This document shows, in pieces, positions 2,333-35,400 of a stretch of 48,154 nt of DNA. The first letter of the stretch is position 1. Each line of letters begins with the position of its first letter. The DNA is taken from contig CP154954.1 in the NCBI GenBank assembly GCA_039621445.1, forward strand, positions 49,951,847 through 50,000,000. Direction: 5' to 3'. Under the pieces are notes generated by a model. It was given only the letters and a program-made list of their open reading frames with translations, did no database searches and was not told where the DNA came from. This stretch comes from Euglena gracilis (taxonomy: Eukaryota). Both the position numbers and the translations under genes were made by a program.

Positions 2333-5300
2333 TCAGCAGGCAGCGAAGTTCAGGCTGCGCAGCAAATCCAGCAGAGGGTGGGGGGCGAACAGTTGGGCGG
2401 AGGCGGCGGGGGCGGGGGGAGTCGGCAGGGCGCAGCCCCGGAGGGCGCTGCGGGCTTGGCGGCAGCGACCCCGACGGCGTCGTTGGGGATGGGGGGGGCA
2501 GGGATGTGTGGGGACCCCTGAGTGGGGGGGACCCCCCACACAGGTGGGGAGTACCTCGAACCTGTTAGGGGCTTTCTATGGCCGTTCAAAGTCATAGATA
2601 CTGGGCCGAAATTGTTGGGATTAGATGTATAAAAGCATGCGTATACATTCAAACCTAACTAAACATTGAACCTAAATTTTTATTTGAAAATAAAAGACAC
2701 ACCCAAACTGCTCTGTTTATGACTTCCTTGAATGTTTTTCATGTGGGGAAAAAAATCAAAAAAATGTTCAATCCGCTGAAAAGCGAGGGGGAAAATCATT
2801 GTTGGTGCTTGTGCAGATTCTTTTTCACTGCTTTTGGAAGGGTGTGGGGGTCAGACGACCACTCCCAACATCGGGGGGGGGGGGGGTTCAGGACCTCCTC
2901 GCCCCCAAGCACCTTCGGTCACATACCCGCATCCCCGCGTCAGTGGCCGCACCCACATTCCCTCATTCGCTCAAGTAAGGGCATAAAGGCATTTCCCCAC
3001 CCCACTCCAACAGTCGCCTTACCTGCATCCCTGCATCCGCTCCAGTACGGGATGGCCTGGTGGGGGTCAACCCCCCCCTCCGGGAGGTACGGGGGGGTTG
3101 ACCCCCCCACACACAGCATTCGGTGCCGAAGGAAAATTTTGAACTAAATAAGTGGTTCCTTGTGTACAGGGAGGCTTGGTGGGGGGGTCCACCCCTCCAC
3201 TGGAGGGGTTGCGGGGATCCCCGTACAGCCCTGGCCCCAATAACTGCACACCCATCCCATATCCAGACATCTGCTCCACACACACAAAGTGGTGCAAAAT
3301 GGTCAAATATCGTCAAAATGGACGATATTTGAATATGAATTTAAATGGACCCAAAAAAAAATGCCAATAGTGGTTTGAAATAGCCAAAAAAAATGACCAC
3401 AAATGGGTCACAGGAGAAAATGGCCCAAGACCAGAAGAAAATGAGCACCCAAAAATGGCCAAAAATAGGTCAAAAGGGGCCAAAAGGGGCCAAAAGCTAC
3501 ATAAATTGGCCAAAAGTGGCAAAAAGTGGCAAACAACCTCCAAAAGCGGCCAAAGTGGCTGGAAACAAGTCGAACAACAGCCAAAAAATCTCCGCATCGC
3601 CCTGCATCGCCCTGCATCACCGTGCATTGCCCTGCATCACCCGACATCGTCAAACTTGCCCACCACCTACCTCAATACCAAAAGTCCCTGGGGGGGGAGG
3701 GTTGCGGTCTGTGCTGTGGTGCCAGTGCTCACACTTTTTTCAAACAAAAACAGCCCCAAAGCATGATTTTGTAATTTTGGGAACACGCTAATTTTAGAAA
3801 TATAGATTTTGTTGGTCAGATAAAAATCCGAAAATGACAAAAAAAAGACGAAAAGTTTGGCCTAAGGCAAAAAAAAATATGGTCCAAGATGCAGAAATCC
3901 TCAAAGTCAAAATCATTTCCAAGCAGAAAATGGAGGGGAAAAGGCATACAAAAAAGCCAGAAGTTGCCAAAATTTGCCTAAATTTGTCAAATTTGGCTAA
4001 CTTTGGCAACAAAAAAAAACACCTGGGTTCCCTTGTGAAACGTCCAAAAATGACCGGAACTCACTTCACCTCCCATTTTTGGTCCATGCGAAAAAATTGC
4101 TGAGAAAGGGGAAAAAAATGCGGAGAAAATGCGGGAAAAATGCAGAGGATTGCGGAAAATGCGGAAATATTGCGGTAACCAATTCTCCCCGGGACTGGTC
4201 TCAATTTTGCAGGGTGCAAAACAGCAGAGAGGCTGGGGGCGGTGCCGTGCCAGTGTGCACACAATTGGCTAGCAGCGACTTCGGGGCATGGGGCTGGGTA
4301 TGACCCACACAAGTTGAGGTGTAGGCAATTTATGCTCCACACAGCACATTGCAGGCAATTCCTGTGGCTCGCTGGGCTGGAGAGGTCCGCTTCCAGCGCT
4401 GCCAACGCCGGAGGGGCCGGGGTGGCACTCTCCGGGGGCGGCGTGGCCGGCCGGTCCTGGTCCTCGGTGGGGTCCCGGGGACGGGCTGGGGGGGTCCGCA
4501 GGCTGAACGGGAAGACGTGGGCTGGTGGGCGCGGCCAGGGCTTGATTGACTCGGCACAGCGTCTTTACCATGGTCAATGCAGAGTCAGCAAAATAACTGG
4601 GCGCCTGTTCTGGGCCGGCAATGGGTGTCTCATTTGCAGTCCCAACTCCTTATTGCTTCCCAATCTCAAAATTGAATGCCAACCCAGAAATCACATGAAC
4701 ACACACAAGCAAACCACACACAACACACGCATTCAGACACACATTGAAAGCTGCACGGTGTGCATGGTGTGCACGGAGTGCCGCATACCATACCTCGGTA
4801 TCTCCACAGACAAAACTGCCGACCACTCCACCACAGCACCACACCACACCATCACTGACTGGTAAAAAAGTCACACACAGCCACAACATTCAGGAATAGC
4901 AGGCGTTCCTTCCGTCAACGCCTGGGCAGCGACCCGACTTGACCACTGGGTCCGCTGGCCAGGGCCAGGCATTGTTTTTTTAAGGCACCATTGAAAGCCT
5001 TAAAAAAAAAACCTTAAAATGCCTAAAAAGTGCACAAAAAGCCGTAAAAAAACCCTAATGCACCCTGTAAAACCATTTGAAAAAAAACCCTTTAAAACCC
5101 TCAATAAAACTCCGGCAAACATTTCAAATTTTGAGCAAAATGAAGTTGCACAACAAATTTTTCTGCAATCGCTGGGAACTCTTCCATTTACTTGAACTCG
5201 AAAAAAACGTTTTCGAGTTTTCTGAAGTTGGACCCCTTCGGTATCGGGTTGGCCCTTTGGGTCGTAATTGGGAAGTAAAAATATCAAAAAATAGGGGAAA

Positions 5301-8300
5301 AAATGCCATAAAAGTTTGAAATTTATTCGCCTAAAAAATAATGCCTGGCCAGGGCTCCCGGGGAGCGGCGGCCAACGGAGACCGGGCCAACGCTGGGCTG
5401 CCGAGGGCCTCCGGGGTAGGGGGGGACCCCGGCCGCTTGCTGGAGTCCCCCGAGGAGACAGGGTTCGGGGGCGCCCCCCTGCCGTTGGCTGGCACCCAAC
5501 CCCTGCGGCTGCCCAGTGAAAAGATTGGTACCTTTTCTTTCGCTGAGAAACACCCGGGGAAGCCTTCTGTGTCCTGCAGTTTGTTTGGAATGCTGGAGCC
5601 ATTGAAGCTGGACCGTCAGAGCAGCAGCGCAACAGCGGTGCCAACACATTGAATCAACGCAAAAGAGAATTCGTTAAGACGGCAAATGCGCCGAAGCCCC
5701 GTGTGCCCAGGTCGCCCTGCGGCACCACGCCGGGTTGGACAGAGTCTCATCGGCCAATCGGACGTTGAAAGCGCGTGCAGGCCAAAGCGGACCCACCCAG
5801 CGGCGCCAGAACCGCGACCCGCCAATGCCTCATGCCAGAGACCGCAGGGGGGCGGAGAGGGGACGCGGGGCAGCCGGCGCCGGCGGAGTGGCTTCGGAGA
5901 TGACGTAGCGAGCAGGGCTCTCTGATCGGGAGGGGACTGTTCCATGGGGGAAAATGAACTCTATGCCAATGCCTCCAACACACATTTATGCTGGTCTCGG
6001 ATCAGGGGGTCGATAGAGCGGGGGGGGGGGGGCAAGTTGGCAAGTTGGGGATGCATGGATGTATGGTCATTTTTGGCTATTTTTGGGTCCTTTTTTTTGG
6101 CCCTTTTTGACCAATTATAGGCCAATTTTGTCATTTCTGGCCACTTTGGGTGAAATGCATTATGTTTTTTTTTCTCGCACGTTCAGCAACAAGGCTTGTC
6201 GAATGACCTTCCCCTGGTCAGACCTTTTTGGATACTATGCTTGTGCAGAGTTGTGCGAATAAATTTCTTCATTTTTCCTTCAGCATTAGAGAGGCACAGT
6301 GATTTGCTGAGATGTCCTCTTCTCCAAAGAGTGTTTCACACGTGAACATGGTATTGCCACACAATTCATTTCCCATCCAATGTGCCCCATGAGGTTTGTC
6401 TTTTGTGTTTCCACACCGGTCAATTCAAAACTCAATGTTTGCTTTTGATTGTCTTTTTTTGTTGCGTTGTTTTTTTTTTACTGCAACGTCAAAACGGCGG
6501 CGGAACATGCAACGGCAACGGCCCTCTGATCTTGCAAGTTGACAGGAAAGTCGCAAAAATGTCCAAAAATGGTAAAGTCACAGTAAAATGACTGAAACAG
6601 CAAAAAAAAGAAGAAAGCTGGGGGGGGGGGCAGCTGAACTGAAAAAAGCAAAAGTCGAAGCGTTCACATAAGCTGGGAGAAGGGGTGACTGCATTCCCTC
6701 TCAAAGCACGACAGTGTGGCGACTGCCGAGGTAACGACAGGGAGGCCCCTGGCCGGGGTGCAGCTTGCTGCACTTCCCGCCGAACTTGCACTGCCCCGTC
6801 ATGGCCCACACCTCACACACCTGCCGGCCGGCCTGGGCCTGCACCGCCCCGGACAGCTGCCGGTAGTCCGAGAGGTCCGGGTGGGGGAACCGGCACCGGG
6901 GGACTGCCCCCGCCTTGCCTCTGCTCCCGGCAATGGTGTCCATATGGAGGTATTTGAATCCCAACGTAGCACTGCCCAGTGTGGAGACAACACAAACAGC
7001 AATGCAAGGAGGGGTTTTCTGAAGAAGCCGGGGGCAGGGGGGAGGGACTGCTGACCCAAAGGGGGGGGGGCAGCAGCCTGGCTGGAAGCTGCTGGCTGGG
7101 GAAACTGTGCGGGACCCTCTCCCCCCGGGGTGGGGTCACCTGTGGAAAAACTCCCGCTGAGGAAATCCCTGATAATAACTTGGGAGCACGAGAATGGTGT
7201 GGGAAAGAGACGTTATTGAGCGAAGCACGTGTGACCACAGGAGCGGGGAGCGGGGGAGGCAAGGTAGGCGGGGTCAGGCTGCCGCCGCACACAGCGGCCC
7301 TTCAGGTAGTCGAGGCCAGGCTTCAGGGCTTCGAAAAAATGGCAGAAACTTGTGGGGAAATTGATATCAGGAGGGCAAACATTTTTGCTGACGGCGACTG
7401 AGATAATTTCACAAATTTTTGCCATTTTGCAAAAACAAAAAGGTCCAAAAAGCACAATTTTTGTAATTTTGGGAACATGGTGATCTGGAAATGTGGAATT
7501 TCTGTGGTGAAAAAAATACGAAAACGGCAAAAACTGCCGAAAACATTGGTCTCAGGAAAAAATCTGGTCCAATGCAGAATTTTTCTAAATCGAAATTATT
7601 TTCCAGCAGAAATTGGGGAAAACCCTAAAAAGGCCCTAAGAAAATTTGTCAAATTTTCTAAATTCGACAAATTTTGGCAAATTTGAAACAAAATAACAAA
7701 AAAAGCACCTGGGTTCCCTTGTGACACGTTTGAGAAGTGGCCAAAACTCATCTTGCCTTCTGTCTCAGGTTTATGTGAAAAAATCGAAGAAAGCGAAAAG
7801 ATTGCGGAAATTGCGGGAAAAATGGTGGAAATCAATTCCCCCCCTTTGAGGCTGTTGCTTTAGGTTTCACAGCACCCCGGGTCATTTGGAAAGTGGAAAT
7901 CCTGCCTCCCCCCCCCCTTGTCGTTGACACGCCAATGTTCCAGGAGAGCGCCGTTGACACGGGGGGGGGGGGGGGCGTGTCAACGACACGCCATGTCAAT
8001 GTCACTGTGATTCAATAGGTACCCCCCCCCTAGTCGCATGACCGGGTTCCTGCAACCTGTGACCGGGGGGGGGGGGGTCATAACACCCCCATAACCTGCA
8101 ACCTGTGACCGGGGGGTGGTCGTAAATGAGGTGGCAGTCAAGCACCTCTGGTCATCCATGCCCCTAACCCCAGCATCGCCCAGCATCGCCCAACATCGCC
8201 CAGCATCGCCCAGCATCGTTCAGCATCGCCCAGCATCGCCCAGCATCGCCTTTGGAGCCCTTGAAGGTGTACCTTTTATGCCTGCTGCTTTTGCCGCTCT

Positions 8301-11044
8301 CGCCCACTTTTGGCTACTTTTGGCCATCTTTGGTTGCTTTTTGACCACTGTGACTGCTTTTTGAACGCTTTTGCCCACATTTGCTGCCTTTTGACCAATT
8401 TTGACTGCTTCTTGACCACTTTTACTGCTTTTTGCCCACTTTTGCCCATTTCCAACCACCTTTGCAGCTTTTTTGATCAATTTTGCTTCTTTTTGACCAC
8501 TTTTGACCACTTTTGCCTGCTTTTTGACCACTTTTGACAACTTTTGCTGCTTTTTGACCACTTTTGCCCACGTTTGCTACTTTTTTGCCCACTTTTGGCC
8601 ATTGTTGCCGCTTTTTGATCACTTTTGCTGCTTTTTGACCACTTTGTTGCTATTTGACCACCTTTGCCTGCTTTTTGACCACTTTTGCTGCTTTCTGACC
8701 ACTTTTGTCCCACTTTTGCCTGCTTTTTGACCACTTTTTGACCACTTGGCAGCACAAGATGTGGTGTGCAGGCCTATGAGATGGCAACATCGAGTGCAAG
8801 TTGCAAGCCTCTTGCCGGTCAGACAAACAGAGACCAAAACAGTTGTTGTGCTGGAGGGTGGAGGGTGGCACCCCTGCAATTGCAACGGGGTGTCGACCCA
8901 ACACCCCGCCTAGACCAGACTGGATCTGCGGCGAGTGTAAGTGTTCAGAGGTTATACCAACAACAACCAAGTAAAGACACAGCAAAATGGCGTTGTCCAG
9001 CATCTGCACCTTGTCCACCATCTGCATCTTGTCCAGCATCTTCACCTTGTCCAGCATCGGCATGTTGTCCACCATCTACATCTTGTCCAGCATCGGCATC
9101 TTCTCAGTATCTGCAACGTTGTCCGGCGTCTGCATCCACTTCATCTTGTCCAGTATCTGCTTCTTGTCCAGCATCTTCACCTTGTCCAGCATCGGCATGT
9201 TGTCCACCATCTGCATCTTGTCCAGCATCGGCACCTTGTCCAGCATCGGCACCTTATCAGTATTTGCAACGTTGTCCGGTGTCTGCATCCACTTCATCTT
9301 GTCCAGTATGTGCTTCTTGTCCAGCATCTGCATCTTGTCCAGCATCTGCATGTTGTCCAGCATTTGCATCTTGTCCAGCATCTGCACCTTGTACAGCATC
9401 GGCACCTTATCAGTATCTGCATCTTGTCCACCATCTGCTGTTGTCCAGTATCTGCATCCACTTCATCTTGTCCAGCATCGGCATCTTGTCTGGTATGTAC
9501 ATCTTGTCCAACGCCTGCATCTTGTCCAGCATCAGAGTCTGTCCAGTATTCATCCAATGGCACCCAACCTAGCCAAAATAACCACAAAAGCCCAAAAATG
9601 ACCACAAAAACCCAAAAATTGACCACAAAAAGCCCCCAAAAAGCAACCAAAATGACCCAAAGTGCTTCAAATGACAAAAAAAATGCCCAAAAACGCCAAA
9701 AGATTGTGAAAAATGACCCAAAATCACCACAAAGGCACAAAATGGCCCACAATGCCATAAAATGCTCATATTGACCCAAATTAGCCTAATATTTGCCAAC
9801 TCAGTGACAAATAACCCCAAATTAGCAAAAAATGATCCATAATGGCCAAAATGGGTGTAAGACTGGAGAATTGTAGGGAAATTATCCCAGAAATGGGTTT
9901 AATTCTTCAAAATGTACAAAAAAAATGCCAGCATCGCCCAGCATCGCCCAGCATCGCCCTGCATCGCCCAGCATCGCCCAGCATCGGAACCCCACCTCTG
10001 GTCTCCAAAATTCCAGCATCGCCCAGCATCGCCCTGCATCGCCCAGCATCGCCCAGCATCATCAGAGGTGCTTGGTGGCGGTCATAGGTAAGGTGGTGTT
10101 AAATTTTTCGCAACCTGCAACCTGTGACCGGGGGGGGTCATAACACCCCCATGACCTGCAACCTGTGACCAGGGGGTGGTCGTAAATGAGGGGTGGTCAT
10201 ACGACTAGGGGGGGGGGGGGCAGTGTTCCAGAAAAGTGTCGTTGACACTGGGTGTGTGCCAACGACACGCTGTGTCAACGACAAGGGGGGGGGGGTGTGA
10301 CCCCTGGGGGGGTCCACCAGCAGGGCTAGCCAGGAAAAATTTCTCCAGGTGCGGAATGCCAGAACTTCTTTTGGACCCCAAGCCTGGCCAAAAATACCCA
10401 TGTTTGACCATTTTTTTTGGAATTTTTGGAACATGGCCCCAAAAACACTAAAAAAAATTGTTTCCCATCGGGGACCCCGGACCCATCCCCAGGAGGTGGG
10501 GGGCATGCTTGTGCTTACCAACCGGGGGGGGGGGGGGTGGGGGGGGTTGCTATAGGGTGCCTGCCCCTAGCAGGCACACCCCCCCCCCGGGGGGGGGATA
10601 GGGGTCCGGGCCGGACCCAGAAAATTTTCATTGAAAATGGCCGTTTCCGGGCCCCCGGGGCATTTGGCGACGAGGTCGGAGGGGGGTGCCTGCTAAAGGC
10701 AGGCAACCCCCGAAACCCTACCCCCCCCCCGGGGGGTCGGATCGGGTGCTATGGGGTGCCTGCCCCTAGCACCCACCCCCCCCCCCCGTGGGGTAGGCAC
10801 CCGACTAAGCACAAGCCTGGTGGGGGGTCTGGTTAGAGGCTGTTTCCAGTGTGTAGCAAAATGGCCAGCCAGTGGACCCCCCTAAACTCTGGCCGAGGCA
10901 CACGCGGCGGTTCTCCGCCTTGTCCTCCCGGGCTGGCGGGGGTTGCTTCGCGCCCGTTGCCCCGGTCAGCGGCAAGGAACCGCCCAGCGTCCCATCGCTG
11001 GGGATGGGGCCCAGTGAGGGGTGGGAGAAGGCCGGGATGCGCAT
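2333..11044 (-). CDS. Tandem CCCH zinc-finger protein, paralog A (about 286 aa, 8 coding exons, nonconventional introns)
   Basis: Exons inferred by alignment with paralogs B and C: 10895-11044, 7281-7311, 6755-6897, ~5838-5907, ~5351-5506, 4928-4960, 4378-4530, 2333-2457. They total 861 nt and are phase-consistent. Spliced product: MRIPAFSH...KAENRRVCLDYLKGRCVRRRCRFPHPDLSDYRQLSGAVQAQAGRQVCEVWAMTGQCKFGGKCSKLHPYVIS...ALEADLSKARSALRG...HPLLDLLRSLNFAAC*. Motifs are C-x7-C-x4-C-x3-H and C-x8-C-x5-C-x3-H. Differences from B in the 3' exons fall largely at synonymous third positions. The exon 4/5 junction is tentative. Confidence 0.85.
2458..4377 (-). other. Nonconventional intron shared by all paralogs (also 17803-21104 and 30083-31540)
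   Basis: A|G(C/T)C-CAG...GGGTCGCTG-N5|AAGCCCGC in all copies. Removal gives ADL(S/A)KAR. Confidence 0.78.
4531..4927 (-). other. Nonconventional intron shared by all paralogs (also 21252-21519 and 33043-33342)
   Basis: Y|GCC-C(A/G)G...CTG-N5|G in all three copies, phase 1, with paired ends. Confidence 0.8.
4961..5350 (-). other. Nonconventional intron specific to paralog A = TIR element 4966-5347 plus one TSD copy
   Basis: Perfect 8-bp direct repeat gccagggc at 4958-4965 and 5348-5355. TIRs caggcattgttttt / aaaaataatgcctg. Sense-strand junctions CCCT|GGC-CAG...CTG-GCCCT|GGCC. Paralog B is uninterrupted at the homologous site (~21550). Confidence 0.88.
6898..7280 (-). other. Nonconventional intron shared by all three paralogs (also 22409-24119 and 35004-35798), CTG...CAG stem
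   Basis: 5' CTGCCCCCGCCT-like end pairs with 3' AGGCGGGGGCAG-like end in all copies. Removal yields C-V-R-R-R-C-R-F-(P/A)-H. Confidence 0.8.
7323..7845. repeat. Dispersed ~500-bp AT-rich repeat family
   Basis: Shared motifs (ttttgtaattttgggaaca, cacctgggttccct, ttgcggaaa) recur at ~3735-4190, ~32055-32390 and ~39840-40080. Confidence 0.65.
8139..10074. mobile_element. 1.9-kb non-autonomous TIR element with 8-bp TSD, carrying decamer arrays and an 18-bp minisatellite
   Basis: Perfect 12-bp TIR caagcacctctg / cagaggtgcttg. TSD gtggcagt (8131-8138) / gtggcggt (10075-10082). (cagcatcgcc)n lies near both ends. Partial relatives at ~25165-25717 and ~3290-3660. Confidence 0.8.
8992..9550. repeat. 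18-bp minisatellite (atcttgtccagcatctgc)n
   Basis: About 30 degenerate units; a shorter copy lies at ~25168-25262. Confidence 0.9.
10504..10819. mobile_element. MITE with 14-bp TIR and 8-bp TSD (hAT/P-type signature)
   Basis: TIR catgcttgtgctta / taagcacaagcctg. Perfect TSD gtgggggg at 10496-10503 and 10820-10827. Second copy at 12665-12941. Confidence 0.85.
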
Positions 11045-11070
11045 CGCTCTGTGACAGGGGCAGGGGGGGT
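11045..11070 (-). promoter_or_regulatory. Putative spliced-leader trans-splice acceptor, paralog A
   Basis: Minus strand reads ccccctgcccctgtcacAG|agcgATG: a pyrimidine-rich tract and an AG 4 nt before the start codon. Confidence 0.55.
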
Positions 11071-12664
11071 GCTGGGGGCTAAGGCTCCCGGGGGGGGGGG
11101 GGGGGGGGGGCGAACAGGCCAGTTGGAAAAAGGTGCTGGCTGGACCCCCCCCTCGGGGGTACAGTATGGAGGTACATGGGGTCCGGCTGGCTGGGATCTG
11201 GACCCAGTAGGAACCCAAAAAGCTGGGTTGGCATTTTTCAGTGAAGACCCAAAAAGCACCCAAAAATGCCACCTTGGCCAGTTTTGACTCCTTTTTCACA
11301 AATGTTCGGCGCTTTGTGCCATTTTTTTTGGAAATTCTAGGTGACAAGATTTCAGCAAGGGGGGCTTAGACTTGCCCCGGATGGATTGGGAGATATTCCG
11401 AATGAAAAAAAAGTCTGAACTCATTTTTCGACAAACTCAGTGATGAGAATTTACACCTGGGGGGGGGGGGCAGGATTGAAGGAAAGGCCTGGGGTCAACC
11501 TTGGGGGCCAAATTTGCATGTCAAGAATTTCGGTGGCCATGTGCAACAGGCCAAAGGCCAACCTTTGGGGGGGGGGCAAGTTTTCATGTCAGGGGGTCCA
11601 AGTGCACGGGGGGGGGGGGGGGTATTCACTTCATAAAGTGAAGTGAGATGGCAATAAGAGCAGGAACACCATCTTGGACGCCCTTATGAGCCCTGGCCAA
11701 AAGGCCCCGGGCAACTGTCGCGTGACAAATTGGGCAGCACGGAGGGGGGTGACAATTTCCCGGGGCGACTATTTGGCCGGCACAGAGGGGGGGGTGACAA
11801 TTGCCCGGGGGCGTCAATTGCCCGGGGGCGTCAATTGCCCACCCATGTAAGCCACATTTAAACCAAATGACCAAGAGCACCATCTGAAACACAAATGAAT
11901 GCAGGAAAAATGCAGCTATGGTCATGAAATTGTGCAGAGCGTTTTGGTATGCAAAATTTCTCAGCACGTTGTAGCGAAATAGACGATCAATCGAGTCGTG
12001 TTGGCAAAAGAAAATCAACAGTGCAATACTGCAAACGGGGGGTGACAAATTGGGCAGCACGGAAGGGGGTGACGATTTTCCGGGGTGACAAATTAGCCAG
12101 CACAGCCAGGGGTGACAATTGCCCAAGGGCGTCAATTACCCGGGGGCGTCAATTGCCCGGGGGAGGGGGGGGGGCGGGTTGGCAGAACAGTGACCTGAGA
12201 CAACACTTGATGCCAAAGAGGCCAAAATACTTCTTGTTGCAGGTTTCTTTGTGTCAACCCCGGGGGGTTGGGCTCAGGGTTAGGGTTATGGTTAGGGCAT
12301 CCAAAAAAATATCCCAAAAAGTCCAGGCACAAATTTGATTCAGGCTTCTATTGGAGCAAAGCAGAGGAAGCACAGGTCCCTGCCACACAATCAAGGCTGC
12401 GGGCCAAAGATTTGTGGGTGTACGAGTGTCTGGGGCGGTGTGATCTGGGCAGGTCCGCAGGGGCTCGGGTTTGGACACCGGACTGTGAGGGTGGGATCAC
12501 AGATTCTCTTCGTGACTGGGGGGGGGGGTTCTCCCTGGGCCTGACAGGGCCCAAGCTCACCCAGCCAATTTTTTATTAAAAACCCATCAACCCCACCGGT
12601 GAGGCTAAACGTTGGGTGAATCTGTGGGTGGGACGCGACGTGGGTCACCTGCTGGGGTGGGGAC

Positions 12665-12941
12665 CATGCTTGTGCTTACCGACTGGGGGGTGAGGGGGCT
12701 GGGTGGGTGCTATAAGGTGCCTGCTCCTACCAGGCACACCCCCAGGGGGGTCTGGGGGGGACCCAGAAATTTTTAAATAAAAAAAGCCCTTTTCCGGGGT
12801 CGGAGGGGGGTGCCTGCCTTATGGGCAGGCACCCCCCAAAACCCCACCCCGCCCGGGGGGGGGTTGGATCGGGTGCTATGGGGTGCCTGCCCCAAGCACC
12901 CCCCCCCCCGTGGGGTAGGCACCCGACTAAGCACAAGCCTG
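12665..12941. mobile_element. MITE, same family as 10504-10819
   Basis: Same TIRs and similar interior. TSD gtggggac / atggggac (7/8). Confidence 0.85.
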
Positions 12942-13691: not shown

Positions 13692-14246
13692 CCAGTCATT
13701 TACTCTGGGGAAACAACATCACTCAGGGTAATAAGTTGGGGGGGGGTCGGAAAAAATCCTTCACTTAAGTCCCCAAGTGTGTGCTGCTGGTGATACTGTG
13801 GTGGGGGTGGGGGGTGGAGGTTGAGGTTGATGGACAACAATGTGCCAACGTAAAAAAAAAATTTCTTTGGTTGGGAGCGCAACGGAGCAAGGGGTGTGGG
13901 CAATGACAACGGATCCAATTGTCGGCCGCCCTGACAAAGAAGCAACATTCGGATCACGTGGGGTAACAAGACCGAAAGGGGGAGTTGCAACAGCTGCACC
14001 AGGGTGGGGGGCAGTTGCAGCCTCCACTGCGGCAGAGGTGGACATGGACAAATGAATAGCAACACCGCCTGTCCAAAACACGCTCACCTTTGCTTCACAC
14101 ATATGCACCAAACAATTTTTTTACCGACACAGGGGGATGTCACTTCCACTCTTCCAAAAACCAGGCACTCACTTTTCTTTGGAAAACCAGTCAGTTAACT
14201 CCCCAATATTTTGGAATTTTTTTGAATTTTAGTTTTTTTGACCCTA

Positions 14247-15414: not shown

Positions 15415-15592
15415 TACGACGCTGATCCACGCAGCAGAGCCTGGCAGGGATCGGGACAGCGATGGAACCGCCGGCTTAGGCTACGGCGGAATCCAACGCG
15501 GGCAGCCGGCCCCACAGGCCGACAGGCCCCTCTCCCGTCCCCCAAAGAGGGCAAACCACTGGCAGGGACCTCTTTGGCAGACCACGGAGGGA
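15415..15592 (-). other. Conserved downstream block (probable 3' UTR) of paralog B
   Basis: Homolog of 385-560. Confidence 0.55.
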
Positions 15593-20600: not shown

Positions 20601-23600
20601 TGCGCTTTAACAAACAGCCCAAAAACACCACACCAAGGCGCCGCAAGCAACGCAGTCCGACAAACACCCAGGACTCACACCGCCGGCAGCTCGGACACAC
20701 CCGGGACACAGCCGAAAGAAGCAACAGGGGCAGTAAAGGTCCCGTTCCTATGGTGCTTTTTTGCGTTTTTTTCCCTTTTGGCCGGCAAGGTCCCGGGGGT
20801 TTCGACGTACAAAGTCCATTTTGGTACCCCCCAAAAACACCATTTTTCGCCAAAGTCCCAGGGGTCTCCCAGCCAAAAACAGAATTTCGCTCGTTTTTTG
20901 CACTCTCTCGTCAACGTGTTTTCAAACCCCCCTGACCTTCACAGCCGAAACAAAGCAGAATCAAAAAAATCGTAAATTGCACAAATGCGCAAATAAAAAG
21001 AAAAAAGCTTAAGTGCGAATTCGGCCGCCTAAGAGGCATTAGATGCTGGGCAAGCCCTAGTCACAGAGTGGAGCAGTGTGAACCCCACCATGGGTTCACT
21101 GGGCTTGAAAGGTCCGCCTCCAGCGCCGCCAACGCTGGAGGGGCCGGGGCGGCACTCTCCGGGGGCGGTGCGGCAGGCAGGTCCTCAGTGGGGTCCCGGG
21201 GACGGGCTGGGGTGGTCCGCAGGCTGAACGGGAAGACGTGAGCTGGCGGGCAGAGCCAGGGCTTGACTGATAGGGGGGATCACTGCCAGGAAATAGGAGC
21301 GGGGGGGGGGGGAGCAACATGCAACCCTTGCGAATTAGGCTCCCCTGTCTTTTGGCAATGGTTGCTTCCAATGAGGGGTACATCTGCACAACATTTTTCA
21401 CATGTGTGAACTTTCATGCCGCAGTTGTCACCACACAAGGCCTCCACTGATCAACAAAGGAGTCACACACTTCCACAACATTCAAGAATATCAGCCATCC
21501 CTTCCGTCAACGCCTGGGCACCGCCCCGACCTGACCACCGGGTCCGCTGGCCAGGGCTCCCGGGGAGCGGCGGCCAACGGGGACCGGGCCAACGCCGGGC
21601 TGCCGAGGGCCTCCGGGGTTGGGGGGGACCCCGGCCGCTTGCTGGAGCCCCCCGAAGAGACCGGGTTCGGGGGCGCCCCCCTGCCATTGGCGGGCACCCA
21701 GCCCCCTGTGGCCGCCCAGTGAGCCAAGGGTCAGGATGGAAAGGCGGTGGCCAACGCCTTTCGGAACAGGCATCGACAACGCGGTGAACGTTAACGTGAT
21801 CCCAGGCTGACCTTGGACCGACGCATCGTCGCCTCATTGGGGACACCGAAAGGGAGGGGTGGGATGCAGGAGGGCGGAGAGGGGACCGGGGGCGGGCTCC
21901 GTGGGCTGGGTGACGACGTAGCGGGCAGGGGTGGTCCAGCAGTGCAAATGAACTTTCGGCCAGCAGACGGAAGTGGAACTGCAAAAGGGACCGCCCCATA
22001 GCCAAGAATCTTCAGACTCTTGGCATTTTGATGCTGTTGTCGGGATTTGTTCGGATTTGTCTGGATTGGTTGGGATTTGTCGGGGCTTGCCACCGGAGGT
22101 GCTTGCCCGTTGCCAAAAAAGAATAATAATTCCATTCTATTCACCTTCCCATCCTCAAACAGGCCATATGATCATAGAAACTGGCTGTGGGAAAGCTGGG
22201 CCTGGTGCAGGAAAAGACAGGAGGCTGGTGAACGATACCATCCTAATGATGGGGCCCCCCTGGCCGGGGTGCAGCTTGCTGCACTTCCCGCCGAACTTGC
22301 ACTGCCCCGTCATGGCCCACACTTCACACACCTGCCGGCCGGCCTGGGCCTGCACCGCCCCGGACAGCTGCCGGTAGTCCGAGAGGTCCGGGTGGGGGAA
22401 CCGGCACCGGGGAAACTGCCCCCGCCGACCCAAAACAAAAAATCCAGCTTTCCCAAAATGATAAAGAAATAAATATAATATAATTAACGATAAATGTATT
22501 TTTTTGACAGATCTTGGACATTTTGAGCAATTTTTTCGCCTTCTTGGCCAAGTTTTGCCACAACGACCATTATTCAGCATCCTTCAACCTGTTTGACCTT
22601 TTTCGGGTCTACCGCAAAAGCGGAATCCCAACTTTTAGGTTGCCTCCGCGGAGACTCCAGGTAACCAGCCTCCATAGAGGCTCAAGGTAACCAGCCTCCT
22701 CGGAGCCATCATCAACTCCAGCATCCTCAGAATAATTACATCAAGGAAAACATGACATTGAAACAAAAAAATGTGAGCATTGTGGGAGACTGGAAATCCT
22801 TTGATGACCTAAACTGATCCGAAAACTTGGTCAAAAAGACAACAAAAATCCGAAATGAAAAAGCAACAAAAACAGACCAAAATAATTTGTGTGACCCACA
22901 CTATTCCAAAAGGATGACCAAGAATGATGAAAGTAGCTCCAAAGAAATCGCTCACATTGGAGCAAAATAGCCCGAGTTGGCTTGGGGGGCATGGTCAAGG
23001 TGGCAGGGTGGGCGTGGGGTGGGATACTTGTGCGGGGGGAGGGTCGGACCATAGGGGGAGAGGGTCGGACCATACAATTGCTTACCAACCCCCCCGGGGG
23101 GGGGGGGGGGAGGGGGGTCACTCCACTTTTTTTAAAAACCAGTCAGTCACTCATTTTCAAAAAACCAGCCAGTCACTACCCCCCCCGGGGGGGGGGGGGG
23201 TCGGCCACTCAGAAAAACGGCCACTTTCCAGTCACTTTAGGCCATTTTAGGCCAAAAAAATTTTCCGGCGCCTTCGGCGCCGGGGTCACTCAAGCCACTT
23301 TTGCCCACTCCTGGCCGACCCCCCCGGGGGGGGGGGGGGGGGTCCGGGCCAAAAACAAGTCAGTCACTCTGAAAAAACCAGTCACCCCCCCCGGGGGGGG
23401 GGGGGGGCGGTCAGTGCTTAAGCAATTGCCTGGGTCGGACCCCCTCCGTCTGCAAAAAAAAAATACGGAGCAAAGTGCAAAGTGGCGGGAATTTTTTGCC
23501 CCCCCCCCTCGGGGTCCAATGGATGGGAGGACTGGGACCCCCCATCCCACCCCATCCCGTTCGGGAACCCCCAAAGTTTTTTCCGGCCCTTTGTACCAGG

Positions 23601-25961: not shown

Positions 25962-26401
25962 CAGGGAAGGATGGGAAGCCTTGAAGGGGGGGGGTCGGAC
26001 CCCCCTCCCAACACGGAGGGGGGGGGGTCGGACCCCCCCCCCCTCATACCTCGAAACTGAGGGGGGGAGGGCCGAAAATTTTTCGATTTCATGCAAAGGG
26101 CCGGAAATCGGGTCGAACCCGGTCAAAAATCCCTGATTTTTCTTTGAAAATGGATCCAAAATGCTCATTTTTTGAATTTTTTGAACATTTTTTGGGGGGA
26201 AAACACCAACACATCAAAAAATGGGCAATATGGCCAAAAGTCAGCAAAAGGGGTGTTTTTGTTCATTTTCCGGAAGAAAATTTTCTGCTATTTTTGGCAC
26301 CTGTCAAGGAGGGGGGGTGGGGGGTCCAGACCCCAGTCCCAACATCTAGGGGGGGGGGGGGGGGGTCGGGACAATACCGAAGGGCTTCCCATCCATCCCT
26401 G
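25962..26401. mobile_element. MITE with ~20-bp TIR and 8-bp TSD
   Basis: TIR cagggaaggatgggaagcc / ggcttcccatccatccctg. TSD agggtgcg / agggtgag (7/8). Confidence 0.8.
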
Positions 26402-29444: not shown

Positions 29445-32400
29445 TCAACAGTCAGGGACGTTAAGAGCTCGCAGCATGTCCAGCAGAGGTTCAGACCAGG
29501 GCTTCGCTTTTAAACCCACCTCCTCGGGAGTCTGATTGAGAGGCTCGCTCCTAAAGTCAGGCAAGCAGAAATTTGGGTGGCTGGAAAAGGCATCTGGAAG
29601 CCCCATTTGGATCCCAGAGGTGGGACTTGGTTAAGAGCTCGCGTTGGACCAAACGCAGAAAAAAAATTTTGAATGCAAAAAATGCAAAAAAAGGAGACCT
29701 CAGTGAGCAGCAAACTGTAAACGTCGCCCAAAAAAATGTCAGACCCAAAAGCTGAGATATACCTTTGAACAGGCATTTTTTAAGGCGCCTTAGAACCCTT
29801 AAATTTCTGGAAAAAAATTCGCCAAAATGACTTACCTTAAAACATTAAAAAACCTTACAAAAATCTTAAAATATCGTTCTAGAAAATTTCAGAATTTTGA
29901 ACAAAAAAGAAATCGCAAAATCTCGGCAAAAACAGGCCAACTCTGGGTGAAAAATGACATCTGGCAATACCCCCTGGTCAAGCTTCGGCTTCAGGGAAGC
30001 CCTGGCTGCAGGCTGTCCGGCAGTGCAGGAGGAGCAGGGACAGGCTCCAGCAGGGCGAAATTCCCGAAGGCGTTGCGGGCTTGGCAGCAGCGACCCTCCC
30101 CCTCACCCAGGCCCGGGCCAGGGTGGCTCCACCGCTCCACCACGCCCCCCAACTTCGGCCGGCCGGCCACTCGTCCTTTCGCGCCGCCCGACGCCGGCCC
30201 TGGTTCAAATTGATGGCCCATGAAAAAGCCACGGAAAGAAGCCACCACCAAAGTCCAGTTTGAAATGACTGGCAGGGAGGTTCAGGGGCCCATGTGGGGT
30301 ACTGCGCCATAGCAAACTTCGCCAAAAACGCTTTTAAAAAAACCAGAAATATATCAGAAATCCTCCAGCATCGGGACAAAGCGTTGTATTAAAGAAAGGG
30401 GGGGTTTGCAGACGAAAGTTTGTGGAAAAGGTTGTGGATTCCCATCAGGGACATGCTCAACAATGCACACTGGGGACATGCAGGGCTGTAGTGAAAATGG
30501 TGAAGGCCAAACCCCACTGGAAGGCACCGAAAGCAAACATTGACCTAACACTAAGGATAAGGTTGGGAGAGGGTACCTCCCCCCCTTGTCGTTGACACAC
30601 CAATGTTCCAGGAAAGTGCCGTTGACACGGGGGGGGGGGGAGTCAGCGACACGCAGTGTCAACAACAAGGGGGCGCGGGGGGGGGGTAACGTCGCGTATT
30701 TTCTTTTTGCACCCAGGGTTCACCACACCCACCCAGCCTGGCACAGCACTTCCACCCTTCCAAAGCCATTCAGTCGTTTTTTTCAGAAGACCGTGGGTGG
30801 GGGGCAGGGGTGGCGACTCTGGGCTCCATGGATAAATCACCACAAATGCGATGAAAAAGAGCAAAAAATGAAGGCGTGGATCACTTTGGTTTCTCCCCAC
30901 CCCACCTCCCGTGGGGTTCGGGCCCAAAACCAACCAGGTACTCTGAAAACAGCCCAGTCAATCAGCCACAATTGGGCGGACGACTGGTGTCCAAATGACT
31001 GTATGGTCTCAATTTTCAAAAAAAAAGTCTTGCATTTCACGTTGAAACCAGTCAATTTTTTAAGCACTGCCCCCCCCCCCCCCCCGGGGGACTGACTGCT
31101 TTTTTTCAGAGTGACTGACTGGTTTTGGGCCCGGCCTCCCCCTGGGGAGGGGGGGGGGTCGGCCAGGGGTGGGCAAAAGTGGCCTAAAATGGCCTAAAGT
31201 GACTGGAAAGTGGCTGGTTTTCCTGGGTGGCCGACCCAGGGGGGGGGGAGGTAGTGACTGTACCCGGTGGGGGGGGGTAGTGATGACTGACTGGCTTCCC
31301 AAAAAAAGTGACTGACTGGTTTTTCAAAAAGTGGAGTAACCCCCCCCCGGGGGTCGGTAAAAAATTGTATGGTTGAAACCACAGGGCATTAAAGACCACG
31401 GTCCCAATGGTTTGGGTTGCCCTCACCTGCAGCCAAAGAGCTAACCCTCTAACTTTTTCCCCAAAAACTCCGAAACCAGGCATTTTGGCAGGTTTTGGGT
31501 GTCCCCCCCCCCACTTTGGGAAATTAGGGGGCTGCTGGACTGGCCAGGTCCGCGTCCAGGTCTGCCAACGCCGGCTGTACTGGAACCCCCGTCTCAGGGG
31601 GTGGCGAGGTGGAAAGACACACACAGCTGCTGAGATTCACGGTGGAGGGCGAGGGGGAGAAGAAAAGAGGCATTCGCCAATTTTCATTTTTTTGTGAGAA
31701 ACCTGCCAGTTATTTTCTGACTGAGGGGATGACTGCAAGGGATGACTGCAGGGAGGTCGTGGGGGGAAAAAGTGGATCACAGAGTCCAAACAAGAACTTA
31801 CTATTTGAAGGAAGTGACGGGCTTCTGGTCAGGAGAAACCAGTCGACACCTCCGCAAACCAGGCTGGCGTTGAAGACAGGGCGTTTTGCTCAGAGACCCC
31901 AGGGGTCCAGCTCAAAAAGCTGGATAAATTGGGCTGGCTGGAAAAAGGCAACTAACTGGCTGACCCATGAGGTCCCAGGTTTGAACCGAGTAAAAAAAAA
32001 ATCGAAACTGCAAAAATGTTCAAAAACTTGATTGTCGGGGGGGGGGGTTGATATCGAAGGCCTTGGGGAAAATTGCAGGAAAATTGTGAAAAATTTGCAG
32101 AAATTGCAGCAAGATTGTGGAAAAAAAGGTGACGGGAATGGAACACATTTCTGCTGGAGGGACTTTTAAATTTTCACAAATTTGGTCATTTGCAATGTAG
32201 GTAAGTTTTGAGACATTTTCAAAATGTTTAAAGTTGACTTGGCAGACTTGCAACAAAATAACACCTGGGCTCCCTGATGAAACGTTCAAGGAATGGCCGG
32301 AACTCATTTCGCCTTCCATCTCAGGTTCATGCGGAAAAATTACGGAAAGGGTAAAAAATGCGGCAAAAATGCGGAAATTGCAAAACGTGTTCTAACCCGC

Positions 32401-35400
32401 ACCCTGCTTTATTCAGCTCACTCATTATGAATCCGGGAACAGACTGCCCAACCACATGGCATCGAAACTGCGGAAAAATTGCGGGTATTAACTACCTGCC
32501 CCCCCCCCTTGTCGTACGACCGGGTTCCTGCAACCTGTGACCGGGGGGGGGGGGTCATAACACCCCTATAACCTGAAACCTGTGACCGGGGGGTGGTCGT
32601 AAATGGGGGGGCAGTCTTTGGTAAGGTGGTGTTAAAATTTTTGCAACCTCAACCTGTGACCAGGGGGGGTGGTCATAACACCCCCATGACCTGCAACCTG
32701 TGACCGGGGGGTGGTCGTAAATGAGGGGTGGTCGTACGACAGGGGGGGGGGGGTAAGTTGACCTTTTGACCAAAATTTGCCCTGGTCAGCCAGCCCAATG
32801 AAATCAAATAATTCAAACTCGTCCATGGGGGAGAAGCGGGTCCGGGGCTGGAAAAAGCCTGCTGGCTGGCTGGGTGGACCCCCCGGGGGGGTCAAATTTC
32901 TTTTAAGCAGCACCCTGGTTGCAGAAACCAACCTGAAGAATGACAATGATGATCCAAGGCAACAGTGTGGGTGGGATTGGGTCACAAGGGGCTGGCGCCG
33001 TGGATGCTGGGCGCAGGCTGAAGGGGTGGACATGGGCCGGGCAGGGTCAGGCGCTGACGGGCTGCACGAGTTGGGCGAAGCTGGAAGGGGGGAGGCCCAC
33101 AGATTGATTCAAAAACCCAGCGAGAGGAGGTTCTTCAAAAAAAAACCTGCTCGCCAACCTTCTTTAGGGAAAACAAAACTGACCATCCAGGACAACACCC
33201 ACAAATTGGCCCCAAATCGTCAAAATGGTTGTCAGGGGAATGGTTCATTTCCCTGACCACACAGCTTTGCATTTCGCGCAAAAGAAGCCGCACGCCCAAC
33301 CCCCCCCCCCGGCACACCGGCGGCCTTCGTCAGCGCCCGGGCGCCGCACCGCCATCGGGATCGGCGGCGGCTCCGACGGCGGGGCGAGCGATGGCCGGGC
33401 CACCGAGCCGGCGGCCCCCGGGGGGTTGGAGGTGGGGAGAAGGGGCCACTGGGGCGGGGCGGCCGGCGAACGGGCGGGGTGCGGAGGCACCCTGCGGCGA
33501 CTCGGGTTGCGACGGGTGGCCCGCCCGGCGTTGGGACAGAGGGGCTGACCACGGCAGCTGACAGCTGCCAAGGTGTGGCACTTGCGGAAATGCCTGGCGG
33601 GGTGCCAGGTTATTGGAAGCAACTTTTGGCCCTGCCCCCCCCCCCCGCCAGGCTATTTGGGCCACTTTTTCAGCGCCGTAAAGGAATTTTGCGGACCTCG
33701 CCGAGTTGCTGGAACCATCTTTTTTGCCCCTCCCCCCGCCAAGTCATTCGGCCCCCACCAGGAGCAAGGACCCCGCCAGGTTATTTGGGGGGGTTTACGT
33801 CCAGATGTGAATGGCATGTGAATTTCCATGCAGACGTGGATACATGTTTAACTCCTGATACACGTCAGCCAACCTAACCTGATTGCTTGCGATGGCTAAA
33901 CCCTGACCCTCCCCCACAAACAGAAGCACGGTTTCACTTCGACTTGGACCCAAACTGTGCAATTTTTGCGGATTTCTTTGCAAATTCCAACCAGATGAGT
34001 GTGCTATAGAAGCAGGAGAGTGCTTTTATTTGGAACCTACGCTTGTGGCGACCCCGCGGCTACATGGGGGGGTTACACCTGGTTAGAAAAAATAGAAACA
34101 AACAGACAGACAGACAAGTTTCTTTTCTGGGGCTGACTTGCCATCCCAGGTGCAAGGTTCATCAGTGGCACGAAATGTGGGGCGAAACGTCGCCCTGGAT
34201 TCACACACCATACCACCACCCCCTCCAGTTTTGAATAATCCCCAATTTTGGGGGGTTCATTTAGGTGGTTGGGGTTTGGTTAGGTGGTAAGGGGTATTTT
34301 TCCCCCTCCCCAAAATGATGAAAACATCGTAAAGATCATTTTTGACTCTCTAACTCCAATCTCACACAATGTTTTCAATCGGAGAAGGACAGAAGAAGCA
34401 GGGTGGACACAGGACCACAGAAGACCTCCACTGGCGGCGTGGGCTGGGGCTGGGGGATGATGTATCCAGCAGGGGCTCACAACCGCAACAAGACTGTGAC
34501 ACCGCATGGAAAAAAAAAGTGTTGCCTGACACACGTTGCCGCTCAGGGCAGAGAGGCAGGTGGACGGGGGCCCCTGGCCGGGGTGCAGCTTGCTGCACTT
34601 CGGGCCAAACTTGCACTGCCCTGTCATGGCCCACACCTCACACACGTAGATTCACTTAGTGGATTCCCTCAGGGGGACATTTTCCGTTTCCCAAACCCAC
34701 CCACCCACTTTTTTCGAAAGCCCACCCACCCACCCACGGCCCCCCCCCTCCCCCGCAAGTCAACCACCCACCCACCCACCCACCATAAAATCCAGCTAAA
34801 ATCGTCCGAAAACGCTGAAAAAACTTTCCGGACAAGCCTTTGGCGGTAGCGCATCGCCTGGAGGGGGGATCCAGAGGCCACGACCCACCCATCACCGTCC
34901 TGTTAAGTGAATCTATGCTCACACACTTGCCGGCCGGCCTGGGCCTGCACCGCCCCGGACAGCTGCCGGTAATCTGAGAGGTCCGGGTGGGCGAACCGGC
35001 ACCGGGGGGACTGCCCCCGCCTCCCCCCCATCCGCCAGGTGATGGGGCACACAAAAAGATATGTGAAAAGCACAAACACCCACGAAAGATATCGCGATGC
35101 CTGCGGTCCCAGCGGACAGCAAAATCAAATCCCTCCCCAAAAAGACCAAAAAGGCAAAAAAGGCAAAAAATGCTGAGTGTGGATCATCTAGTTCATGTTG
35201 TAAAGTTCTGAGATCAAAAAATGAACACAAAAGATCTGCCTCCCTCCACAAAAATTAATTGGCATGTCCCCGGCTCGTATACTTTCTTGCTTGCCGAGAC
35301 ACCGGTTGCCTGCATGCACCGTGACATGCTTATGAAATGAAATTGGATCCCATTCAAAGGACAATACCCAGCCAGTGTCACTCCTAACCCCCCACCAAGC

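Follow-up and report, generated by a model that had tools for sequence, protein, structure and literature searches.

Transposons with 8-bp target duplications as probable sources of nonconventional introns in a CCCH zinc-finger gene array of Euglena gracilis

Background

The question raised by this locus is whether transposons that insert into exons can be removed from the message exactly, and whether such removal would account for the geometry of euglenid nonconventional introns. Splicing of these introns is described by the code 5'-N3CDG-/-CH'GN5-6|R (Nomura et al. 2025, PMC12501133; Milanowski et al. 2014, PMC3935182), and knock-in genetics in E. gracilis defined, in the excerpts of PMC12501133 available to us, the N3 and N5-6 spacers and the purine at the start of the 3' exon. 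Earlier publications already contain a transposon (MITE) origin, repeats that resemble duplications and, in one young intron, an 8-nt repeat, and the idea that splicing acts as a buffer against insertions is also in print.

Our sample was one 48-kb window, the whole stretch of E. gracilis nuclear DNA analyzed here, which carries on its minus strand a tandem array of three CCCH zinc-finger paralogs (A, B and C). A sequence-only reading of this window had proposed that three introns, each present in one paralog, are terminal inverted repeat (TIR) elements flanked by 8-bp direct repeats, and that cutting 3 nt before and 5 nt after each element takes out the element and exactly one duplication.

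Results

Inserts and empty sites

The three inserts (ins1, ins2 and ins3) were found where they had been placed, each in one paralog only, and in each case the intron equals a TIR element plus 8 nt. Ins1 (4961..5350, minus strand, paralog A only) measures 390 nt, the sum of a 382-bp element (4966-5347) and 8 nt; its inverted ends match at 13 of 14 positions, its duplication GCCAGGGC (4958-4965 and 5348-5355) at 8/8, and paralog B carries the empty site in single copy at 21550-21557. Ins3 (34640..34920, minus strand, paralog C only) is 281 nt long, a 273-bp element (34645-34917) plus 8 nt, with ends that match at 13/14 by manual count, a duplication CTCACACA (34637-34644 and 34918-34925) that is again 8/8, and empty sites in A (6812-6819) and, with 1 base different, in B (22323-22330). 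The direct repeat extends to 11 nt for ins1 and to 9 nt for ins3, which we attribute to adjoining target bases that coincide by chance with the element ends. Ins2 (7312..10894, minus strand, paralog A only) has 3583 nt, made up of a 3575-bp composite element (7317-10891) and 8 nt; it starts with CAG and ends with CTG, and about 9-10 of its first 12 positions are pairable by manual count. The perfect repeat that the sequence-only reading implied is present in ins1 and ins3 and fails for ins2, where GTCGAGGC (7309-7316) and GCCGAGGC (10892-10899) agree at 7/8. The mismatched base belongs to the portion of the 5' copy that splicing would place in the intron, and the exonic copy is identical to the empty site in paralog C (35827-35834); the empty site in paralog B is at 24148-24155. 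Because the sister paralogs carry the same 8 bases in single copy, the duplications are not chance repeats.

Removal of element plus 8 nt restores the coding sequence, as had been predicted. The spliced frame of paralog A is open for 226 aa with its CCCH fingers rebuilt, the frames of A and C are both intact after insert removal, and stop codons appear when ins1 or ins3 is kept in frame. The first coding exon of A (10894..11044, minus strand, start codon 11044-11042), which is supported by RNA depth and read variants at 10984, 11003 and 11015, has its 3' end at the ins2 site. Between ins2 and the next intron lies a 30-nt micro-exon (7281..7310, minus strand), placed by the joints 6897->7281 and 7310->10894 and by translation, that codes for the central part of the first CCCH finger, and this finger is rebuilt when ins2 is removed. 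In the exon that holds the ins3 site, paralogs A and B share 98% identity and C is ~93-95% identical to A.

RNA evidence for removal

Ins2 is skipped in the reads as exactly 3583 nt. The joint 7310->10894 was found in 104 raw reads of run X21 (57+47), in 2 contigs of X1 and 1 contig of X6 (RNA-like runs), and in 0 contigs among the matches listed for the DNA-like run X20; the RNA confines the cut to offsets 0-6. At locus A the RNA runs differ from the assembly at several sites, including 10984, 11003 (where the window's base is found in 7/56 reads) and 11015, and the A-like protein P0001 diverges after residue 108 from the A encoded in the window, which means that an A-like paralog or allele is present. 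Given this copy and the read variants, the reads across the ins2 joint could derive from an empty-site copy, and the only argument against such an origin is the count of 0 joined contigs listed in X20.

For ins3, the published transcript-derived protein P0002 (EG_transcript_32696) is 100% identical to paralog C across four exons, on both sides of the ins3 site, and lacks the insert; the source of P0002 could be an allele that lacks ins3. Support for the splicing of ins1 is indirect. Its joint is not among the 15 listed joint rows, RNA depth within the element is low, and a loose RNA end at 4965 runs on into the bases after the right-hand duplication. Slid to one of its permitted positions, the ins1 intron has GC...AG borders, so the conventional spliceosome could remove it.

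A fourth young intron, i8 (12493..12629, minus strand as judged from neighbouring introns), is 137 nt long, a 129-bp TIR element (12498-12626) plus 8 nt, with termini similar to those of ins3 and a duplication (12490-12497 and 12627-12634) that matches at 7/8. Its joint (12488->12626, a skip of 137 that is slidable by 8) was found in 33 reads of X21 (11+22) and in contigs of X1 and X6, with 0 among the matches listed for X20; the window holds no empty-site copy of i8.

Geometry of older introns

RNA cannot show the 3|5 cut in young introns, as their joints slide within the duplication, and the exact cut positions inside the perfect duplications would be those given by the 3+5 geometry. Two older nonconventional introns have joints that cannot slide, and both joints occur in RNA runs only. 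The intron of paralog A at 5467..5857 (minus strand, joint 5466->5858) consists of 3 nt, an 11-bp terminal helix and 5 nt, and that at 14013..15446 (minus strand, joint 14012->15447), downstream of paralog B, of 3 nt, a CAG...CTG helix and 5 nt. The exact 3 nt + helix + 5 nt geometry, found in 2/2 non-slidable introns, agrees with the N3/N5-6|purine code derived from genetics (excerpts of PMC12501133), where the spacers that the sequence-only reading had invoked are an experimentally defined requirement. In two older introns the nucleotides outside the helix number 7 or 9 instead of 8, and the junction octamers of older introns agree at 2-4/8 positions (manual count). The triplets of ins3 and i8 (CAT/ACG and CAC/GTG) fit the published CDG/CH'G incompletely. 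Among the joints listed, 0/11 distinct RNA-only introns have GT-AG at any allowed slide.

Other CA...TG elements

We scanned the window for CA...TG inverted-repeat pairs with a threshold of at least 7/8 matching 8-bp flanks, and offset flanks served as the control. The threshold was reached by 12/1036 pairs versus 5/3108 offset controls, and these 12 pairs comprise nine elements and three satellite pairs. Ins2, ins3 and i8 fell below the scan thresholds and were added manually, which gives 12 elements with flanks matching at 7/8 or better.

Eight of these elements, listed without strand, are further to the four introns and have 8-bp duplications in places that are non-exonic or without assignment. 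Two are nested in ins2: an element at 8139..10074 (1936 bp; duplication GTGGCAGT/GTGGCGGT, 7/8), whose empty site is found in a repeat copy within the stretch 32570-32660, and a MITE at 10504..10819 (316 bp; 8/8), which shares one family, with unrelated flanks, with the MITE at 12665..12941 (277 bp; 7/8). The latter sits downstream of paralog B in a segment with RNA coverage; read in sense orientation, its duplication has C, a non-purine, at position 6, and none of the joints listed is its own. Other MITEs are found at 23071..23432 (362 bp; 8/8; between two paralog B coding blocks), at 25962..26401 (440 bp; 7/8) and at 31049..31371 (323 bp; 8/8), the last a candidate intron because its duplication, read in minus sense, has pyrimidine|purine at positions 5|6. 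The candidate element at 18086..21015 (2930 bp; 8/8) is the least certain, given its palindromic duplication and satellite-rich stretch. The long open frames of the element at 42033..45579 (3547 bp; 7/8) gave no Pfam match, and no transposase was found in the 48-kb window.

A pyrimidine at position 5 and a purine at position 6 had been noted for the three duplications and are also present in i8. This makes 4/4 introns; of the other elements, 1/8 have the pair when read in minus sense (Fisher p = 0.010) and 2/8 when read in plus orientation (p = 0.030). A selective filter probably acts on duplication position 6.

Discussion

The earlier observation is confirmed and its interpretation supported, and we consider it probable that 8-bp-duplicating transposons are removed as element plus 8 nt and so become introns. 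Non-autonomous cut-and-paste transposons of several TIR families, with a CA start, a TG end and an 8-bp staggered cut, would land anywhere, exons included. In the pre-mRNA their inverted ends would pair, and the nonconventional machinery, which needs a downstream exon that begins with a purine, would cut 3 nt upstream of the 5' arm and 5 nt downstream of the 3' arm. Since 3 + 5 equals one duplication, element and 8 nt would be lost together and the message restored without a scar, and this scarless removal would leave the insertion silent, to be kept as a new intron.

The inserts could instead be old and have been lost precisely by the sisters, for example by cDNA recombination, with the single-copy sites as scars of the loss. 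For ins3, which only C has, the paralog identities make a single loss in the common ancestor of A and B no less parsimonious than a single gain. For ins2, absent from B and C, loss takes two events and gain one; the introns adjoining the ins1 site are retained in B, and the duplications and TIRs are near-perfect while the paralog exons diverge by 2-13%. We regard loss as improbable and believe that each insert was gained in one paralog; even with loss, 8-bp repeats that abut TIRs would indicate an origin by transposition. Repair of a double-strand break, in which filler DNA caught at a staggered break leaves direct repeats without a transposase, has been the interpretation of one recent nonconventional gapC intron that carries direct repeats of eight nucleotides (PMC4770533, in excerpt). 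Filler DNA would not start with CA and end with TG each time, however, and here the inverted ends abut the repeats in 12/12 elements, the repeat length is always 8, one MITE family is present twice between unrelated flanks, and a nested copy in non-coding repeat DNA has its own empty site, all of which makes repair very improbable.

It is also unlikely that the interrupted paralogs are decaying copies and that the spliced-looking RNA stems from uninterrupted copies, allelic or paralogous, at other places in the genome. The divergence of P0001 and the variants at 10984, 11003 and 11015, which mean that several haplotypes are expressed, agree with that idea; it is opposed by the X20 DNA contigs listed, none of which has the joined form of ins2 or i8, by reads that are at least 95% identical to the 30-nt micro-exon specific to A, by the identity of P0002 to paralog C and by the intact frames of A and C without their inserts. 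More weight has to be given to a coincidence produced by filtering, which we consider possible though doubtful: the 3+5 rule would have evolved for other reasons, and only insertions with 8-bp duplications would survive in exons. The equality might then, just as tentatively, be a matter of ascertainment, uninformative about how the rule, or most nonconventional introns, arose. The spacer rule is intrinsic to the machinery and a 6-nt 3' spacer is tolerated, according to the excerpts of PMC12501133, and the junction octamers of older introns match poorly. All eight non-coding CA...TG elements found here nevertheless have an 8-bp duplication, and the window contains no competing class that was filtered out. 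Filtering retains scarless removal and differs from our account solely on which came first.

Giroux and co-workers are said to have described in 1994 a maize Ds insertion that is processed as an intron. Ds, a hAT element, makes an 8-bp duplication; the insertion is likewise taken out of a gene at the RNA level, reportedly through cryptic conventional splice sites and not scarlessly by design.

The Introner elements of Micromonas pusilla and Aureococcus are TIR DNA transposons that become introns (Huff et al. 2016, via excerpts of PMC11282704), and with them, as here, one duplication copy leaves with the element and the message is restored. They are spliceosomal, have GT/GC-AG borders and take a splice site from their 3-nt duplication, whereas the borders in our locus are non-canonical and the cut is set by distance from an RNA helix. 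In the tunicate Fritillaria borealis, non-canonical MITE-derived introns have been interpreted as a way in which the host has adapted to render transposon insertions harmless (Henriet et al. 2019, via the same excerpts). These introns also bear TIRs and duplications and are removed despite non-GT-AG ends, but by a modified U2 spliceosome at AG-AC/AT borders, and the excerpts give them no N3/N5 helix-distance rule. In Euglena agilis strain ACOI 323, gapC intron 4 is a recent gain (Milanowski et al. 2016, PMC4770533): a young, strain-specific, nonconventional intron with eight-nucleotide direct repeats at its flanks. This single case was interpreted as a fingerprint of double-strand-break repair, and the excerpts available describe neither TIR/duplication arithmetic nor element families.

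The introns described here have in common with euglenid nonconventional introns, as excerpted from PMC12501133 and PMC3935182, the non-GT-AG borders, the helix from +4 to -6, the 3/5-nt spacers, the purine-initial downstream exon, the sliding of junctions in direct repeats and a suspected MITE origin. They differ from those in the two papers in that filled and empty sites, TIRs and 8-bp duplications are visible, and in that the spacer sum is tied to the duplication length, a link that the excerpts do not state. The word 'duplication' has 0 occurrences in the searched text of PMC12501133, and a statement that 3+5 equals one duplication was not found in the literature examined. We infer that this rule may be valid genome-wide. 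The equality of 3+5 with one duplication would explain the odd geometry of these non-standard introns.

Organization of the locus

Self-comparison of the window, combined with translation of the conserved blocks, identified three paralogous copies of one gene, all on the minus strand: paralog A, from before base 1 to ~11044, paralog B, from ~12.5 kb to ~24.2 kb, and paralog C, from ~33 kb to ~35973. The gene product contains two CCCH zinc fingers. With the A exon at 6756-6895 as query, seven proteins were retrieved from a large protein collection, the source of every one being eukprot. Paralog C and the transcript-derived protein P0002 (EG_transcript_32696) show 100% identity across four exons, while P0001 (EG_transcript_11334) shares 48 of 50 residues with the first exon of A and diverges beyond residue 108; the EG_transcript names belong to what we take to be the published Euglena gracilis transcriptome.

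Locus A is expressed from several haplotypes, with variant sites at 10984, 11003, 11015, 5379 and 5394. The window's base at 11003 was present in only 7 of 56 RNA reads, and the two residue changes of P0001 are the outcome of the variants at 11003 and 10984. A DNA-like run differed from the window by ~1-2% at A and by only ~0.2% at B. The stop codon of paralog A is located at ~2333-2335, yet at least two further spliced exons (1385-1447 and 415-521) lie beyond it, and reads on this side extend beyond the window's left edge. These exons belong either to a second cistron or to an extended 3' UTR interrupted by several introns. In paralog B the region matching 415-2335 of A (12488-17700) contains five introns, and the frame is open in both copies of the block 395-557 / 15428-15591.

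Paralog-specific inserts

The sequence-only reading had described three introns, each present in only one paralog, as TIR elements flanked by 8-bp direct repeats, with the empty site retained in the sister paralogs. Sequence comparison of the paralogs found all three as described, and the intron spans that had been proposed correspond to the element plus 8 nt at ins1, ins2 and ins3 alike. The first insert, ins1, is a 382-bp element of paralog A at 4966-5347 (+ strand coordinates, as for the other two) between duplication copies at 4958-4965 and 5348-5355, with its empty site at 21550-21557 of B. The second, ins2, also in A, is a 3575-bp element at 7317-10891 with duplication copies at 7309-7316 and 10892-10899 and empty sites in both B (24148-24155) and C (35827-35834). 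The third, ins3, is a 273-bp element of paralog C at 34645-34917 with duplication copies at 34637-34644 and 34918-34925 and empty sites in A (6812-6819) and B (22323-22330). The implied exactness of the repeats holds for ins1 and ins3 (8/8) and needs correction for ins2 (7/8), where the single mismatch falls at position 7 of the 5' copy, in the part predicted to be intronic; the 3' copy, on the exonic side, is the same as the empty site of C. A fourth young intron, i8, is formed by a 129-bp element at 12498-12626, whose inverted ends are 9 bp long and whose duplication matches at 7/8.

The interior of ins2 is a mosaic of nested elements and tandem repeats at several levels. It includes a ~2.2-kb element with poly-C/poly-G ends (~8021-10222), which itself holds a 1936-bp CA...TG element and has a 254-bp relative at ~32498-32740, as well as a 316-bp MITE, small poly-C-ended elements and arrays of 18-nt and 20-nt tandem units. 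Within ins2 the DNA run was ~1000 to 10000 times as deep as over single-copy sequence.

Removal of the inserts from RNA

Two contig sets (X1 and X6, called RNA-like here because their RNA nature is a guess), a raw RNA-seq run (X21) and a DNA-like contig set (X20) were compared with positions 1-20000 of the window, a stretch that ends before ins3 at 34.6 kb. We recorded as joints those reads or contigs that skip the bases between two positions; among the 15 joints listed, 12 were found in the RNA-like runs only and represent at least 11 distinct introns. The expectation that the inserts would be skipped as element plus 8 nt, with junctions located without a GT-AG prior, was borne out at ins2: the joint 7310->10894 skips 3583 nt, is supported by 57+47 reads of X21, two contigs of X1 and one of X6, and is absent from the listed X20 contigs. 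This joint slides by 6, as predicted from a duplication that matches at 7/8. The i8 joint, 12488->12626, leaves out 137 nt, can slide by 8 and is supported by 11+22 reads of X21 and by contigs in X1 and X6, again with none listed in X20.

None of the 15 listed joints spans ins1. One X6 contig matches as far as 4965 and then continues with the 12 bases next to the right-hand duplication of ins1, on its far side, and the 43-nt side of the joint 4525->4923 in X1 is a micro-exon, 4923-4965. The depth of X21 was ~1.3 in the bin holding the ins1 element vs ~9.3 in the adjoining bin. When the B exon that extends across the site of ins1 served as query for transcript-derived proteins, none of 307 candidates scored. 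At the ins3 site, P0002 is continuous, with C-specific residues on both sides. Thus ins2 and i8 are absent from mature RNA according to reads and contigs, ins3 according to a transcript-derived protein, and ins1 according to indirect evidence.

The coding sequence agrees with the claim that removal of the element and 8 nt restores it. The A exons, as delimited by the joints, together form a 226-aa open frame in which the first finger is reassembled across ins2 and the next intron, while removal of ins3 from paralog C rebuilds the second finger. Stop codons are introduced if either ins1 or ins3 is retained. The joint 6897->7281 has a companion in each of the three RNA-like runs, 6899->7286, whose two sides are separated by three additional letters and which probably reflects another paralog or an alternative cut.

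Intron borders and geometry

Could these introns be the work of the conventional spliceosome, as are spliceosomal introner elements, which are spliced at GT/GC-AG borders with one of the two sites supplied by the duplication? One slide of ins1 does read GC...AG, a reading that is possible because its direct repeat extends, by chance, to 11 nt. The other three young introns do not fit: ins2, ins3 and i8 cannot be read as GT/GC-AG whichever permitted slide is chosen (ins3 as judged by eye from the sequence), and none of the 11 RNA-only introns listed is GT-AG in the sense orientation at any allowed slide. The young introns fit the euglenid nonconventional class, defined by non-GT/GC-AG borders, a CA/TG helix and a downstream purine. 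The 2024 review places CAG at +4 to +6 and CTG at -8 to -6 (PMC11282704), and in ins1 and ins2 the terminal helix, in which CA at +4,+5 pairs with TG at -7,-6, is CAG/CTG; it is CAC/GTG in i8 and, with one mismatch, CAT/ACG in ins3.

The two introns whose junctions do not slide (5466->5858 and 14012->15447) both consist of exactly 3 nt, an inverted-repeat helix and 5 nt. At ins1, ins2, ins3 and i8 the nucleotides outside the helix total 8; because these junctions slide, they fix the sum and not the 3/5 split. With the helix as anchor, the outside bases also total 8 in most of the other RNA-only introns, two older ones having 7 and 9 by eye. A simple helix finder, which is misled by mismatches near the ends, left 8 nt unpaired (i+j = 8) with its top helix in 5 of 14 introns, and the remainder were counted by eye; intron ends were also examined by duplex folding. 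If the duplication is cut after its fifth base, leaving three, the downstream exon begins with G, G, G and A in the four young introns, a purine in 4/4.

Elements with 8-bp duplications across the window

An initial TIR scan was overwhelmed by a palindromic satellite at 18.4-20.3 kb and was replaced by a scan of the whole window for CA...TG inverted-repeat pairs matching at 11 or more of 14 positions and 60-4000 bp apart. Flanks matching at 7/8 or better were found at 12 of 1036 such pairs, three of them in satellite, vs 5 of 3108 in a control with offset flanks. Adding ins2, ins3 and i8, which are below the thresholds of the scan, to its nine hits outside satellite gives 12 elements, each with an 8-bp duplication adjoining its TIRs (8/8 in six and 7/8 in six). 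It follows from these 12 that elements duplicating 8 bp are common in the window and that they land outside exons as well. Four of the 12, namely ins1, ins2, ins3 and a nested element at 8139-10074, have an empty site with a single copy of the duplicated bases; the nested one interrupts a repeat that shows the empty site in its other copy, near 32.6 kb. Two more, 10504-10819 and 12665-12941, belong to one family, and their flanks are unrelated. Duplications of 8 bp are made by the hAT and P superfamilies, and the elements share this property with them.

A TIR motif common to ins3 and i8 gave 7 hits vs 0.84 expected. Global alignment showed the two to be alike at their ends only, and we do not claim them as one family. 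Of 98 open frames of at least 130 aa listed for the window, 10 long ones were compared with Pfam and gave no transposase match, only a sub-threshold match to the CCCH zinc finger.

In 8 of the 12 elements (window 4957, 8130, 10495, 12656, 12489, 23062, 25953 and 42024; binomial p = 0.006 vs 28% G) the left-hand duplication is immediately preceded by G, the right-hand one is immediately followed by C in 5 of 12, which is not significant, and the empty site of the nested element is likewise surrounded by G...C. This pattern may represent a palindromic target preference of the transposase. The satellite of short GC-rich units (18400-20350) and a CA/CG-rich satellite at 43.5-44.0 kb (43500-44050) both yield false inverted-repeat and direct-repeat hits.

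A possible purine filter on the insertions that are spliced

The sequence-only reading had noted a pyrimidine at position 5 and a purine at position 6 of all three duplications. This is correct for the three and extends to i8: in the sense orientation positions 5 and 6 are T-G, C-G, T-G and C-A, and no other position of the duplication is pyrimidine-purine in all four introns. Among the eight other elements the same step occurs in 1/8 in minus sense (Fisher p = 0.010) and in 2/8 in plus orientation (p = 0.030), a comparison of small numbers in which the orientation of non-exonic elements is assumed. One CA...TG MITE with a 7/8 duplication, 12665-12941, is situated in an RNA-covered segment between two verified introns and has C at position 6 in the sense orientation. 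Under the published purine rule it is predicted to be unspliced because of this C, and it would be a natural negative control for that rule. Another, 31049-31371, has an 8/8 duplication with pyrimidine-purine at positions 5 and 6 in minus sense, and is a candidate further young intron if its site is transcribed.

Relation to published work and significance

The general idea of a transposon origin is already published. Nonconventional introns were suggested in 2014 to derive from MITEs (PMC3935182), a gapC intron specific to one strain and flanked by eight-nucleotide direct repeats was interpreted in 2016 as a trace of break repair (PMC4770533), and in 2018 the validity of the transposon theory was still posed as a question (PMC6221363). 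The 2024 review describes TSD-like repeats as frequent at nonconventional junctions, and the introns as leaving in the form of full-length circular RNA (PMC11282704). The 2025 knock-in study in E. gracilis defined the code 5'-N3CDG-/-CH'GN5-6|R, which fixes the 5' spacer at 3 nt, sets the 3' spacer at 5 nt but tolerates 6, requires a purine as the first base of the 3' exon and makes no demand on the bases of the donor side; the study counts 84.4% of all introns as slidable and suggests that transposon insertions are perhaps buffered by the splicing machinery (PMC12501133). The word "duplication" does not occur in the text of PMC12501133. In the published literature, figures and supplements aside, we did not find 3 + 5 equated with one target-site duplication, nor its corollaries that both junctions carry the same consensus and that a purine filter acts on the surviving insertions.

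Our results support the reading of the inserts as transposon insertions with 8-bp duplications that are removed by the nonconventional pathway as element plus 8 nt. A broader proposal, to which we give slightly less than an even chance, is that the N3/N5 spacer rule is co-adapted to one 8-bp-duplicating transposon superfamily, the machinery being an RNA-level undo of that insertion chemistry. Such insertions would be harmless because the 3 + 5 nt of the machinery equal the 8 duplicated bases. That the excision factor is itself derived from a transposase seems to us very improbable.

The origin and the removal of euglenid nonconventional introns are both open questions, and the window captures the insertion event four times, with target-site duplications, and with empty sites for three of the four. 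Equating 3 + 5 with one duplication would explain the spacer lengths known from knock-in genetics, the identical pyrimidine-purine consensus of the two junctions and the very large proportion of introns that can slide, and it makes the question of origin directly testable genome-wide on existing assemblies and RNA data. If the proposal is true, the consensus at the two junctions would be one duplication position seen twice, the requirement for a purine at the 3' exon start would decide which insertions turn into introns, and the majority of nonconventional introns, which number hundreds of thousands, would have started as such insertions.
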